Shown: positions 2,126 to 7,879 of the stretch, one piece after another
How the letters are laid out: every line of letters starts with the position of its first letter
Position numbering within the stretch: position 1 is the first letter of the stretch
Assembly: GCA_963753185.1 (NCBI GenBank)
Contig: CAVWBO010000007.1
Span: 1,019,538-1,083,537 of the forward strand
Source: an uncultured Acidimicrobiia bacterium
GTDB lineage: Bacteria; Actinomycetota; Acidimicrobiia; Spongiisociales; UBA5794
Reading direction: 5' to 3'
DNA: 64,000 nucleotides
Notes under the pieces: model-generated
Databases searched by the model: none
The model's input: only the letters and a program-made list of their open reading frames with translations
Told to the model about the DNA's origin: nothing
Program-made: the position numbers and the translations under genes

Positions 2126-3277
2126 TCAGGTGGGGAGGAGAACGGGATCGACTCGGTCCGGGTCCGCGATGTAGGCGATCCGCCCACCGACGATCGTGCA
2201 GACCACCCTTGATCCGCCGGCGTCTGATCCGTCGAGGATGGCGATGTCCGCCCTGGCCCCTTCGCGGATGCGCCCGAGGTCCCGGCGGCGGACCGCGCTG
2301 GCGGGGTTGACGGTTGCAGCCCTGAGGACCTCGGACACCGGTGATGACACGACTCCTGCGAGGATGTCGACAGCACGGTCCATGGTGGTGGCGGCACCTG
2401 CGAGTGTGCCGTCGTGCTTTCTCACGGCACCGCCGTTCGCGGTGACCGGAACGCCGCCGATGTGGTACTCACCGTCGGGCATGCCAGCGGCGGCGATCGC
2501 GTCGGTGATCAGCACGAAGCGGTCGGCGGCTGCGTTCCATGCGAGTTCGATGGTCGCCGGATCGTGGTGGTGGCCATCCACGATCATGCTGAAGTACGTC
2601 CGAGGATCGGTCAGGAGGACACCCGCGATCCCCGGATCGCGGGCCGTGATCGGGGGCATCGCGTTGAGGAGGTGGGTCCCCATGGTCGCACCCGCTTCGA
2701 GGGCCTCCCTTGCCTGGTCCGTCGTCGCAGCCGAGTGACCGATCGACACGATCGTCCCGGTGGCGGTGAACCGCCGGATCATTTCGAGAGCGCCACGCAG
2801 CTCCGGAGCGATCGTGATGATCGCGATGCTCGGGTGGGGCTCGAGCCTCGTGTGGGACGGCGCGGTGAGGAGGTGCTCGGGATGAGCCCCGCGTCGAGTG
2901 CCGGCGAGATGCGGTCCCTCGATGTGAAGTCCCATCGGTTCTGCGCCGACGTAGGCCTCGGGGCGCATCGCCATCGCGGCGATCGCGGCCTCCACCCTCT
3001 CGTGGGGAGCCGTGATGATCGTGGGGAAGAACGATGTGACGCCCGTGCGCGGGAGGAGGGCGCCCACCCGCCATATGGAGGACGGATCCTCAGTGAAGTC
3101 GGACCCGAAGGCGCCGTTGATCTGGAGATCGATGAAGCCGGCGACCACGGTCAGCCCTGAAGCATCGATGACATGGCCCTCGAGGTGGTCGACCCTCGCC
3201 TGGATGCCGTCCACGACTCCTACGGTGATCGGCCCACCTTCGGCTCCCCTGCCTCCCTCGATCCGGATTCGTGTCAC
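2126..3277 (-). CDS. nagA: N-acetylglucosamine-6-phosphate deacetylase
   Basis: ORF 2126..3355 has GFIDLQINGAFG (Q-x-N variant as in E. coli NagA), HIEGPHL and THLLNAM motifs. The start is uncertain: GTG 3277 avoids a 50-nt overlap with fahA, and ATG 3355 is the alternative. Confidence 0.8.
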   Translation of the reverse strand: MTRIRIEGGRGAEGGPITVGVVDGIQARVDHLEGHVIDASGLTVVAGFIDLQINGAFGSDFTEDPSSIWRVGALLPRTGVTSFFPTIITAPHERVEAAIAAMAMRPEAYVGAEPMGLHIEGPHLAGTRRGAHPEHLLTAPSHTRLEPHPSIAIITIAPELRGALEMIRRFTATGTIVSIGHSAATTDQAREALEAGATMGTHLLNAMPPITARDPGIAGVLLTDPRTYFSMIVDGHHHDPATIELAWNAAADRFVLITDAIAAAGMPDGEYHIGGVPVTANGGAVRKHDGTLAGAATTMDRAVDILAGVVSSPVSEVLRAATVNPASAVRRRDLGRIREGARADIAILDGSDAGGSRVVCTIVGGRIAYIADPDRVDPVLLPT

Positions 3278-3305
3278 GGTCGGGTCACGGAGGCGGCGGA
3301 TCCGA

Positions 3306-4553
3306 TCACGCAGTGACGGTCCCGGTGCACGGACCGAAACCGATGGCGACGCCATCGGCGTTGGAGCAGCGAGCGTGCATCGAGACGGTGTCCCCGTTCT
3401 CGAGGAACGTCCTGTGGGATCCGTCTGCGAGGACGAGCGGATCGGTTCCGTTCCATGAGGATTCGAGGAGGGACCCGAATCCCCCCCGTTCTGGTCCCGA
3501 CACCGTTCCCGATGCGAAGAGGTCGCCGGGACGAATGGTGGCTCCGTTGACGGTCGCGTGGGCGAGCTGCTGGGCCATCGTCCAGTACATGTCGAGGAAC
3601 GATGTGGTGCACACCGTCGTCGGGGTACCTGCCTCCGGAGTGAGGACGACGGAGAGGTCGATGTCGACGCCGCGCCTGGCGTCCGGTGTGAGGTAGGGGA
3701 GCGGTTCCGGGTGCTGGGCGGGGGCGGTAGCTCGGAACGGCTCGAGCGCCTCGAGAGGCACGATCCACGGAGAGATCGTGGTTGCGAAGGACTTGCCGAG
3801 GAACGGTCCGAGGGGAACGTACTCCCACGCCTGGAGGTCCCTCGCGGACCAGTCGTTCACGATGCACAGCCCGAAGATGTGATGCTCGGCCTCGTCGATC
3901 GGGATCGAGGTGCCGAGCTCGGGTCCTTGTCCCGTCACGAATCCGACTTCGAGTTCGAAGTCCAGCTTCTCCGAGGGTCCGAACGTGGGCCCATGCCCGC
4001 CCCTGCGCTGACCGTGCGGGCGACGGATGTCCGTCCCCGACACGACGACGGTGCCCGCCCTTCCGTGGTAGCCGACCGGCAGGTGCCTCCAGTTCTCGAG
4101 GAGGGGGTCGGCGTCGGGGCGGAACATCCTGCCCACGTTGGTCGCGTGCTGCTCGCTCGAGTAGAAGTCGACGTAGTCACCGATGGCGATCGGGAGCGAG
4201 AGGTGGACGGGGCCCGCGATGAGGAGGTCGTGCTTGTCGCAGAACCGCCTCCCCTCGAGGTCCGCCTTGTTGAGTACCTCCACGATGCGCGACCTCACGG
4301 TCGACCATACGCCCCGGCCCTGTGCGAGGAATCCGTTGAGCGATGAGGCTCGGAATGTGTCCGGTTCGAGTCCGCTGTTCGCGAACAGCCCCGCAGCCTC
4401 CGCCTTGGCGAGATCGAAGATCCGCTCGCCGATCGCCACGCCGCATCGCGTCCCCGTCATGTCGGTGAAGACCCCGTACGGGAGGTTCTGGATCGGGAAG
4501 TCCGACCCTTCTGGGACGTCGACCCAGGAGCGGATGTGCGGCTCGACCCTCAT
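3306..4553 (-). CDS. fahA: Fumarylacetoacetase (fumarylacetoacetate hydrolase)
   Basis: Internal ATG 4553 of ORF 3306..4961 gives MRVEPHIRSWVDVPEGSDFPIQNLPYGVF..., a typical FAH N-terminal domain, then the FAH catalytic domain. 415 aa. The start overlaps the upstream stop as ATGA. Confidence 0.9.
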   Translation of the reverse strand: MRVEPHIRSWVDVPEGSDFPIQNLPYGVFTDMTGTRCGVAIGERIFDLAKAEAAGLFANSGLEPDTFRASSLNGFLAQGRGVWSTVRSRIVEVLNKADLEGRRFCDKHDLLIAGPVHLSLPIAIGDYVDFYSSEQHATNVGRMFRPDADPLLENWRHLPVGYHGRAGTVVVSGTDIRRPHGQRRGGHGPTFGPSEKLDFELEVGFVTGQGPELGTSIPIDEAEHHIFGLCIVNDWSARDLQAWEYVPLGPFLGKSFATTISPWIVPLEALEPFRATAPAQHPEPLPYLTPDARRGVDIDLSVVLTPEAGTPTTVCTTSFLDMYWTMAQQLAHATVNGATIRPGDLFASGTVSGPERGGFGSLLESSWNGTDPLVLADGSHRTFLENGDTVSMHARCSNADGVAIGFGPCTGTVTA

Positions 4554-5464
4554 CCCCCGTCCCCGAGGAACGCCAGATCCGCCAGCCCATCCCTCGGCTC
4601 GTCGATGTCGCAGGAACCGAATCCGACGAGCCCGCGCTGGCGTGATCTCCTGATCGCAGATCCCGGGAGTACGACGTCCCTCCAGCTCGCCGCAACCGGC
4701 GTGATCGTGAATGCTGTCGGATCGGACTCCGCGATGATGTCCCTGACAACCGACCGCGGCTGACCGGCGTCGGCTGCAACCGACGCGATCAGCAGGTTGA
4801 CGAACCCGTGCCGCCATCCGTCGAGGTCGGGATCGTGGTGGCGAACAGGCTGATGCAGGCCAGCCGTGGCCTTGAACGGGACGTCGGCGAACGACGCTGT
4901 CCACACGAATGCGGTCACCTCGTCGATCGTTGGGAAGTCGTCCTTCGTCAGTCCCCCGCATCGGAGCTTCGCACCGCCGCGCCGTCCACGGTCGCGCAGG
5001 GCATCGCCGACGGCCCTGATCTGGTCGTCGAGCGGCGCCGCCCTGTCCACCTCGATGTACACGGCGAGGTCGGGATCGATCGTGGCGACCGTGTCGATGA
5101 GGTCGCCAGGGTCGGTTCCGGTTTCGAGCATCAGTTCGACGGCGCCGATCGACAGGGCCGGTGACATCTCCCTTTGGAAGTCATGGCCAACGGACGCACC
5201 TGCTCCGGGCGACATGTCGAAGACGACCCCGATGCTCCACGGCTGGTCTCCCGTTTCGAGGACGTGCGTCGCCACGGCGGCGAGCTCCTGGAGCTGGGAT
5301 GCCCTGACCAGGAACCGACCAACGATCCAGCGGTCGTCAGATGCCAGCGCGGCTCGATAGCTCGCCACCGCATCTGACATCGACAGCGAGGCGGGAGGGA
5401 ACACCCCGGCGTAGTCGATCAACCCGCTGAACGCTGCCGTCCTCGCGTCGATCGCAAGCCTCAT
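4550..5464 (-). CDS. Hypothetical protein (304 aa), translationally coupled between hmgA and fahA
   Basis: C-terminal part of ORF 4550..6673, starting MRLAIDARTAAFSGLIDYAGVFPP... It contains KLRCGGLTKDDFP and FKATAGLHQPVRHH. ATGA overlaps at both ends (5461-5464 with the hmgA stop, 4550-4553 with the fahA start). I do not recognise the family. Confidence 0.75.
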   Translation of the reverse strand: MRLAIDARTAAFSGLIDYAGVFPPASLSMSDAVASYRAALASDDRWIVGRFLVRASQLQELAAVATHVLETGDQPWSIGVVFDMSPGAGASVGHDFQREMSPALSIGAVELMLETGTDPGDLIDTVATIDPDLAVYIEVDRAAPLDDQIRAVGDALRDRGRRGGAKLRCGGLTKDDFPTIDEVTAFVWTASFADVPFKATAGLHQPVRHHDPDLDGWRHGFVNLLIASVAADAGQPRSVVRDIIAESDPTAFTITPVAASWRDVVLPGSAIRRSRQRGLVGFGSCDIDEPRDGLADLAFLGDGG

Positions 5465-6763: not shown

Positions 6764-7879
6764 ATGGATGTCGACATGACGCTGCGAGCGAGGGAGTTCG
6801 CGTCCAAGGACCCGTTCCCGATGAAGGGATTCGGCCCGGTCGAATGGTGGGTCGGAAACGCATTCATGACCGCGCAGGCGTTCAGGGCCCTCCTCGGCCT
6901 CAGCATCGTCGGGTATCGCGGTCCCGAGACCGGTGTGGCCGATCGATCGTCCTACCTCCTGCGCGGTGACCAGATCCAGTTCATCGTCACAGGCGCCCAG
7001 GACGGGGATCACGAGATCAGCGAGCACGTCAAACTCCATGGTCCGGGCGTCAAGGACGTCGGGTTCCTCGTCCCCGACGCCGTGGCAGCGTTCTCGCGTG
7101 CGGTCGAACGCGGCGCCACCGCCCACCGTGAGCCCGAGGTGATCGAGAACGACCTCGGCCGCATGGTGATCGCCGCCATTGGCGCCTACGGAGACACCGT
7201 CCACTCGCTGATCGAGGTCGATGGCGAGGATCCTCGCTTCGAGCCTCGCACCGATTCGATTGCTCGCGACACCGGGCTCCACGCGATCGACCACGTCGTC
7301 GCGAACGTGGAGCTCGGCGGTATGAACGAGTGGGTGCAGTTCTATGAGCGGATCTTCTCGTTCACCATGTTGCGCCACTTCGACGACGAGGCGATCTCGA
7401 CCGAGTACACGGCGCTCATGTCGAAGGTCATGGCAGGAGGGAACGGCGTCATCAAGCTCCCCATCAACGAGCCTGCTCCGGGGAGGAAGAAGAGCCAGAT
7501 CGAGGAGTACCTCGACTTCTACAAGACTCCAGGGGTCCAGCACCTCGCCTTGTCGACGTCGGACCTCCAGACCACGATGGAGGAGATCCACGGAAGGGGC
7601 CTCGAGACGATCGAGGTACCGCACGAGTACTACACCGAGGCCCAGCAGCGCCTCGCGGAGTACGACCTCGACTGGGACCGCATCGAACGCCTGAGTCTCC
7701 TCGTCGACAAGGACGAGGACGGGTACCTGCTGCAGACCTTCACGAAGATGCTCCAGGACCGTCCCACGGTCTTCTTCGAGTTCATCGAGCGACGCGGGGC
7801 CACCGGCTTCGGTATCGGGAACTTCAAGGCCCTGTTCGAGGCGATCGAAAGGGAGCAGGCCAAGCGCGGAAATCTCTGA
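6764..7879 (+). CDS. hppD: 4-hydroxyphenylpyruvate dioxygenase
   Basis: Internal ATG 6764 of ORF 6626..7879, preceded by GAGAGGAG. Two VOC/glyoxalase-type halves and the HPPD C-terminus ...FFEFIERRGATGFGIGNFKALFEAIEREQAKRGNL. Confidence 0.9.
   Translation: MDVDMTLRAREFASKDPFPMKGFGPVEWWVGNAFMTAQAFRALLGLSIVGYRGPETGVADRSSYLLRGDQIQFIVTGAQDGDHEISEHVKLHGPGVKDVGFLVPDAVAAFSRAVERGATAHREPEVIENDLGRMVIAAIGAYGDTVHSLIEVDGEDPRFEPRTDSIARDTGLHAIDHVVANVELGGMNEWVQFYERIFSFTMLRHFDDEAISTEYTALMSKVMAGGNGVIKLPINEPAPGRKKSQIEEYLDFYKTPGVQHLALSTSDLQTTMEEIHGRGLETIEVPHEYYTEAQQRLAEYDLDWDRIERLSLLVDKDEDGYLLQTFTKMLQDRPTVFFEFIERRGATGFGIGNFKALFEAIEREQAKRGNL

Follow-up and report, generated by a model that had tools for sequence, protein, structure and literature searches.

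The breakdown of tyrosine and phenylalanine via homogentisate is textbook metabolism, and it requires an isomerisation between two of its enzymes: homogentisate 1,2-dioxygenase (HmgA) releases the cis compound maleylacetoacetate, and fumarylacetoacetase (FahA) acts on the trans isomer, fumarylacetoacetate. The described enzyme for this step is the zeta-class glutathione transferase (GST) MaiA, also named HmgC or GSTZ1 (EC 5.2.1.2), whose gene in bacteria is located in the same operon as hmgA and fahA. Two further types of cis-trans isomerases act on similar problems, namely the mycothiol- or L-cysteine-dependent DinB/MDMPI proteins (PF11716, TIGR03083), which are the glutathione-free maleylpyruvate isomerases that Gram-positive bacteria use in the gentisate pathway, and maleate cis-trans isomerase of the Asp/Glu racemase superfamily, which is cofactor-free and works by addition of a protein cysteine to the double bond, rotation and elimination. 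To our knowledge, most bacterial phyla other than the Proteobacteria have no gene assigned to the isomerase step, which leaves a gap when the metabolism of soil and marine bacteria is reconstructed. Here we analysed a stretch of 64,000 nucleotides from an uncultured Acidimicrobiia bacterium (contig CAVWBO010000007.1; the whole stretch is called the window), in which a gene of no named family, referred to as X, is located between hmgA and fahA. The affiliation of X with the homogentisate pathway is well supported, and X is probably, on balance, a maleylacetoacetate isomerase which is not a GST but a stand-alone (beta/alpha)8 barrel.

X occupies the slot that belongs to MaiA in other bacteria: it is the sole unassigned gene at this place, and the X-carrying genomes that were searched do not encode MaiA. 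The two proteins are nevertheless related neither in sequence nor in fold, as MaiA is a thioredoxin-like GST, whereas X is a predicted triosephosphate isomerase (TIM) barrel of 304 amino acids without a match to any GST model. Likewise, X differs from the DinB/MDMPI isomerases in fold and sequence (there is no match to PF11716 or TIGR03083), and since some Actinomycetota encode both X and a bona fide MshC, X is not simply a substitute for the mycothiol-dependent enzymes. With maleate isomerase X might share the use of a conserved cysteine, Cys285, as a putative nucleophile, a role which is conjectural; in contrast to that enzyme, X has no Pfam match to the Asp/Glu racemase superfamily (E<=1) and is predicted to adopt the barrel fold.

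X is a real gene, translationally coupled to hmgA and fahA. Its reading frame on the minus strand comprises 304 codons without an internal stop, and the translation starts with MRLAIDARTAAF and includes both sequence motifs pointed out in the preliminary description of this locus, KLRCGGLTKDDFP and FKATAGLHQPVRHH. The ATGA overlaps with both neighbours, at the start and at the stop of X, which that description had reported, can be read directly in the minus-strand letters, and the ATG is preceded, at a distance of a few bases, by a GAGGG motif resembling a Shine-Dalgarno sequence. Homologues of 304 to 306 amino acids with 49-85% identity share the MRL start, which indicates that X is far more than a chance open reading frame. 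X had also been described as the only other gene of the hmgA-fahA transcription unit. However, a nagA-like gene follows fahA and no terminator-like site was found between the two in a promoter and terminator scan that was otherwise uninformative, so that the unit may be longer.

The family to which X belongs is huge and unnamed, with thousands of members. X itself has no match in Pfam and NCBIfam (E<=1) or among PDB sequences, and comparisons of 70 and of 16 diverse relatives, as well as of an X-family profile, with the same three resources gave nothing consistent. At least 1334 matches to X were found in a set of 5.8 billion proteins, all of them called 'hypothetical protein' wherever the source gives a name, and the cluster representatives of the family number 4370 with a limit of E<=0.001 and 587 with one of E<=1e-30. 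Full-text literature searches of incomplete coverage turned up no paper dealing with a maleylacetoacetate isomerase other than a GST or with the X family. One cultured carrier is Micromonospora rifamycinica, whose homologue (WP_067302118.1) is annotated as 'hypothetical protein' too.

The synteny of X with fahA ranks among the strongest that can be encountered. With each species represented by a single genome, a scan detected 588 relatives of X, the best 80 loci of which were examined and 77 could be evaluated. At 63 of these 77 loci fahA is located directly downstream of X on the same strand (62 of 76 if the unpublished locus L035 of genome G205 is left out), and at eight more it lies within 4 kb. 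The adjacency of X and fahA spans at least nine phyla, at sequence identities of 30-35%, and is tighter than that of X to hmgA or hppD. The same picture emerges within single groups: among 201 genomes of Acidimicrobiia, fahA adjoins X at 12 of about 16 loci, and all of 12 further loci from Actinomycetota outside this class adjoin fahA, eight of them in the order hmgA-X-fahA. The X loci are labelled as Actinomycetota, Acidobacteriota, Gemmatimonadota, Eremiobacterota, Planctomycetota, Chloroflexota, Bacteroidota, Krumholzibacteriota and others, with three being unclassified. Some labels of metagenome-assembled genomes look wrong (L045 of G212, L080 of G236, and L025): G212, labelled 'Deltaproteobacteria', groups with the Acidobacteriota, as a second phylum sample centred on it proved to consist of Acidobacteriota again, one 'Saccharimonadales' genome has a size of 5.7 Mb, and one 'Kiloniellales' contig carries an hmgA gene 75% identical to that of Acidimicrobiia.

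Co-occurrence of X with fahA, a comparison already proposed in the preliminary description, is near-exclusive in the Acidobacteriota. Among 151 genomes of this phylum, which are related and hence not independent (no p-value is therefore given), X is present in 21 and fahA in 23; 20 genomes have both, always at a distance of at most 3 kb, and the exceptions are one genome with X alone and three with fahA alone. X thus tracks fahA and not general fumarate or acetoacetate metabolism, which suggests that its substrate should be an intermediate specific for the pathway. In addition, gene fusions were detected. While no longer forms of X were found when X alone was used as query, using the family alignment instead brought up five, three of which consist of an N-terminal X and a C-terminal FahA part and have a length of 680-783 amino acids; in the 783-residue protein from a member of the Planctomycetota, X covers residues 12-333 and FahA residues 364-779. 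Another one, P0274 from a JGI metagenome (1005 amino acids), combines an acetoacetyl-CoA synthetase (residues 1 to about 705) with an X domain (719-999). Acetoacetyl-CoA synthetase activates the acetoacetate that is released by FahA. The order of domains in the fusions equals the order of genes, with the caveat that gene-calling artefacts are possible. A lack of conserved synteny in relatives, combined with a true maiA or a mycothiol-dependent isomerase elsewhere in the genome, had been named beforehand as speaking against a role of X in the pathway; the order of X and fahA is instead kept in most of the evaluable loci and continued in the fusions.

A second line of evidence is the fate of X after loss of the pathway. 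Four genomes from the family of the window organism lack both fahA and hmgA, yet the syntenic site is still occupied by a gene derived from X, with the genes for a ThiS-like protein and an M23 peptidase downstream of it; in two of them (G194 and G198) the remnant is also located downstream of genes for SAM-hydroxide adenosyltransferase and/or PPK2. In G194 the residues E138, K166, K198, H204, C285 and E289, which are highly conserved in the family (see below), are all replaced, and most of them are gone in G198 and G122. Following the loss of the pathway, three of the four relatives thus lost the active site as well, which indicates that the catalytic function of X is tied to homogentisate catabolism. 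Most of the six residues are also missing in a second copy of X in G094. This degenerate paralogue without catalytic residues (L174 5957-6856, minus strand; contig C11 of G094) is located between a nitroreductase gene and an acetyl-CoA-synthetase-like gene, and the same genome has a normal X-fahA pair.

If X acts in the pathway, the question arises whether the isomerase step is filled by another protein. Using the MaiA model TIGR01262 with its cut-off of 171 bits, no match was found in the window, in agreement with the earlier statement that it contains no GST-zeta-like gene, nor in the whole 2.87-Mb genome (95.65% complete). MaiA was likewise not found above cut-off in 33 Acidimicrobiia, in 50 X-carrying genomes of other phyla, or in the 23 Acidobacteriota with fahA; the one positive genome among the 151 Acidobacteriota lacks fahA. 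Glutathione synthetase (gshB) did not exceed its cut-off in any of five X-carrying genomes from five phyla, which makes a glutathione requirement of X unlikely. Mycothiol synthesis is doubtful in the genome of the window as well, because a single homologue of CysS/MshC is encoded there (G000 C7:2402749-2403909). In a search of 33 genomes, members of the order to which the window organism belongs had at most one such homologue per genome, with none at threshold in one of them, whereas a second, MshC-like CysS paralogue (402-425 bits, just under the TIGR03447 cut-off of 485) is present in other orders of Acidimicrobiia. This suggests that mycothiol synthesis differs between the orders of this class. 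The second paralogue is found in 11 of 16 Acidimicrobiia that have fahA and lack X, five of these 16 being without it too, and in none of 13 that have fahA and X. A general complementarity of X and mycothiol was nevertheless rejected, since the split coincides with order boundaries and since MshC and X coexist in six Actinomycetota.

The structure prediction recommended in the preliminary description yielded a confident model. AlphaFold2, run on an alignment of 26 sequences, predicts X to be a (beta/alpha)8 barrel of eight alternating strand-helix units with a small beta-rich insert, possibly a lid, between strands 7 and 8 (pLDDT 93.3, pTM 0.90). The best structural matches are all TIM barrels, and the nearest solved structures are deoxyribose-phosphate aldolases (DERA; Foldseek E 3e-5; VIA-align Z 13.9-15.1, root-mean-square deviation 3.4-4.2 over 205-228 residues). 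Many other barrels score at Z 11-13, however, so that DERA is merely 1-3 units higher; among these further neighbours are HMGL-like synthases (Z 11.7-12.8) and 3-keto-5-aminohexanoate cleavage enzymes (Z 11.5-12.0). X might share with DERA the lysines on strands 6 and 7 (K166 is on strand 6 of the model, the strand that bears the Schiff-base lysine in DERA), but DERA lacks the additional lid, and X has no sequence match of the TIGR00126 type. Homology with DERA was rejected at the sequence level, as hhalign gave a probability of 0.3% when profiles built from 70 X sequences and 12 DERA sequences were compared; the likeness is thus one of fold and not of family. The genome of the window has a normal deoC gene of its own elsewhere.

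Conservation was calculated over 147 representatives of the X family, whose members typically comprise about 280-330 amino acids. Conservation reaches 94-100% at each of thirteen residues (D17, E110, E138, K166, R168, K198, T200, H204, N223, R275, S284, C285 and E289), and X of the window carries every family-invariant residue. Cys285, located where strand 8 ends, is 97% conserved, in contrast to just 64% for C169. In the model, D17, E110, E138, K166, R168, K198, T200 and the pair S284-C285 are located within strands 1, 4, 5, 6, 7 and 8 or at the C-terminal ends of these strands, and the remaining conserved residues just past strands 7 and 8. The C-terminal strand ends are the usual location of the active site in TIM barrels.

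The cis-trans step is the sole known step of the pathway without a gene here, which is the basis for the assignment of X as an isomerase that would convert the maleylacetoacetate delivered by HmgA to the fumarylacetoacetate used by FahA. Rotation about the C2=C3 bond of maleylacetoacetate is possible only if something adds transiently to the double bond, and a simple proton shift is insufficient; nucleophilic catalysis by Cys285 is favoured for this reason. The near-invariant Cys285 would add to the double bond as a thiolate, as the cysteine of maleate isomerase does, while the cationic cluster of K166, R168, K198 and R275 might hold both carboxylates or polarise the 4-oxo group, and D17, E110, E138 and H204 might bind a divalent metal on the 4,6-diketone. 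More tentatively, with somewhat less confidence than would make it the expected outcome, X might be the founding member of a widespread class of TIM-barrel maleylacetoacetate isomerases in which a protein cysteine, perhaps together with a lysine or a metal, replaces glutathione. The preliminary description had suggested that X may be an isomerase of the non-orthologous, glutathione-independent kind or else an accessory pathway factor; synteny and the absence of maiA support this, whereas the isomerase activity itself and its independence of a cofactor are inferences.

Several observations weigh against X being the isomerase. The reaction is assigned by elimination, on comparative grounds for every member of the family, and the structural neighbours of X are aldolases and other barrels, not isomerases, so that they offer no mechanistic precedent. 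Six of the 77 evaluable loci have no fahA within 8 kb of X, and in the fourth pathway-less relative, G038, X has retained all catalytic residues although fahA and hmgA are absent; a relic of hppD of 26 codons lies beside it. The genome of the window also encodes three proteins with a DinB/MDMPI domain that are possible isomerases. They are located far from the cluster (at 413, 1421 and 1989 kb of C7, on which the window covers 1019.5-1083.5 kb) and pass the threshold of the generic model TIGR03083 only; there is no equivalog of a characterised isomerase among them, and the strongest one reaches 215.6 bits against TIGR03084, below the cut-off of 247.95. Neither a maiA gene nor more than these generic proteins was found in the genome, so that this part of what the preliminary description had named as evidence against its candidate is not seen either. 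Furthermore, the six Actinomycetota with a bona fide MshC (600-734 bits), including M. rifamycinica, keep the arrangement hmgA-X-fahA. Being present in mycothiol producers, X is not merely a stop-gap for bacteria without thiols.

The occurrence of fahA without X has to be considered as well on this side: 16 of 29 Acidimicrobiia and 3 of 23 Acidobacteriota with fahA have neither X nor MaiA. No other clustered isomerase candidate was found in the X-less clusters (hppD-fahA-hmgA), where the neighbours of fahA encode phenylalanine hydroxylase, regulators of the Lrp and TetR types, and proteins of unrelated kinds; two open reading frames of no known family at these loci show no similarity to X. Further isomerases or a bypass must therefore exist. 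A non-enzymatic, thiol-catalysed bypass of this step operates in mammals deficient in maleylacetoacetate isomerase.

There are other conceivable explanations for the association of X with fahA. It is unlikely, in our opinion, that X represents a different enzyme of the same segment of the pathway, such as a hydratase, a decarboxylase, a detoxifying enzyme or an enzyme preparing or handling the substrate or product of FahA, with maleyl- or fumarylacetoacetate or succinylacetoacetate as candidate intermediates. Class I aldolases as the closest folds, followed by barrels acting on keto acids, would fit such an enzyme, as would the lysines on strands 6 and 7, the fusion with acetoacetyl-CoA synthetase, which acts after FahA, and the fact that many genomes with fahA manage without X. 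Yet there is no profile similarity to DERA, the known pathway needs no extra step while the isomerase gene is unfilled in every X-carrying genome searched, and a more general role in acetoacetate or fumarate metabolism is at odds with the way in which X follows fahA.

We consider it still less probable that X is a non-catalytic partner of FahA or HmgA required for folding, stability, metal loading or channelling. The pattern of about 12 charged or polar residues conserved to 94-100%, mostly at the C-terminal strand ends, is the signature of an active site and not of an interface, and many FahA enzymes work without X, both in the X-less genomes of this study and in eukaryotes. Translational coupling, the N-to-C-terminal fusions with FahA and the closer tie of X to fahA than to hmgA or hppD are what one would expect of such a partner, and there is a precedent in an accessory protein of a fungal tyrosine cluster (PMC3203155), fungal HmgX being needed for the function of HppD. 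A complex prediction for FahA and X gave a score of 0.00, which is evidence neither way. Finally, it is very improbable that X has nothing to do with tyrosine catabolism and merely lies beside fahA, with the step being spontaneous or catalysed by a DinB/MDMPI protein encoded elsewhere: the three TIGR03083-domain proteins, the intact X of G038 and the six loci without nearby fahA would agree with this, but the adjacency is kept over at least nine phyla despite low sequence identity, co-occurrence in the Acidobacteriota is near-exclusive, fusions arose independently, the active-site residues decayed in three of four relatives without the pathway, and a mycothiol-dependent enzyme would be without its cofactor in a genome with a single CysS/MshC homologue.

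If X is indeed the isomerase, its family would close the gap at this step, and genes of the family located beside fahA could be annotated as EC 5.2.1.2. It would further mean a new chemistry for TIM barrels, a glutathione-free way of handling the toxic electrophile maleylacetoacetate, and the filling of the last step without a gene by non-homologous enzymes in Acidobacteriota, Gemmatimonadota, Eremiobacterota, Planctomycetota, many Actinomycetota and others. New in the present analysis are the series of decayed X genes in relatives without the pathway, the finding that X and mycothiol are not complementary in general, and the naming of a cultured carrier; cultured carriers such as M. rifamycinica make the isomerase claim directly testable.

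The genes surrounding X are summarised in Table 1. All three pathway genes recognised in the preliminary description, hppD, hmgA and fahA, are confirmed by profile matches, with hmgA exceeding a cut-off for HgmA_N only and representing a divergent form: against TIGR01015 it scores 65.7 bits, far under the cut-off of 510. Short cupin-type orthologues of this HmgA (45-88% identity) are found beside X and fahA at many loci in many phyla, and standard annotation rules may therefore miss hmgA in these lineages.

Table 1. Gene X, its overlaps and the surrounding genes (positions in the window)
Feature	Position	Strand	Remarks
M23 peptidase gene	1-1008	minus	follows the ThiS/MoaD-like gene
ThiS/MoaD-like gene, 342 aa	1076-2104	minus	N-terminal ThiS/MoaD-like domain; C-terminal part of about 250 residues of no known kind
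nagA-like gene, N-acetylglucosamine-6-phosphate deacetylase	2126-3355	minus	3' of fahA; TIGR00221 243 bits, above cut-off
fahA, fumarylacetoacetase, 415 aa	3306-4553	minus	TIGR01266 522.6 bits (cut-off 375); FAA_hydrolase_N and FAA_hydrolase
ATGA overlap, X stop/fahA start	4550-4553	minus	TGA of X at 4552-4550; read directly
gene X, 304 aa	4550-5464	minus	unnamed TIM-barrel family member (predicted); candidate maleylacetoacetate isomerase
ATGA overlap, hmgA stop/X start	5461-5464	minus	ATG of X at 5464-5462; read directly
hmgA, divergent cupin-type homogentisate 1,2-dioxygenase, 388 aa	5461-6627	minus	HgmA_N 42.7 bits (above Pfam cut-off) and Cupin_2
hppD, 4-hydroxyphenylpyruvate dioxygenase	6764-7879	plus	divergent; TIGR01263 376.9 bits (cut-off 277)
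open reading frame, 292 aa	7937-8815	minus	between hppD and PPK2; no Pfam or NCBIfam match

The longest open reading frame of the nagA-like gene overlaps the end of fahA by 50 nucleotides. The ThiS/MoaD-like gene and the M23 peptidase gene form a pair whose synteny extends to four related genomes (L120, L121, L172 and L173).

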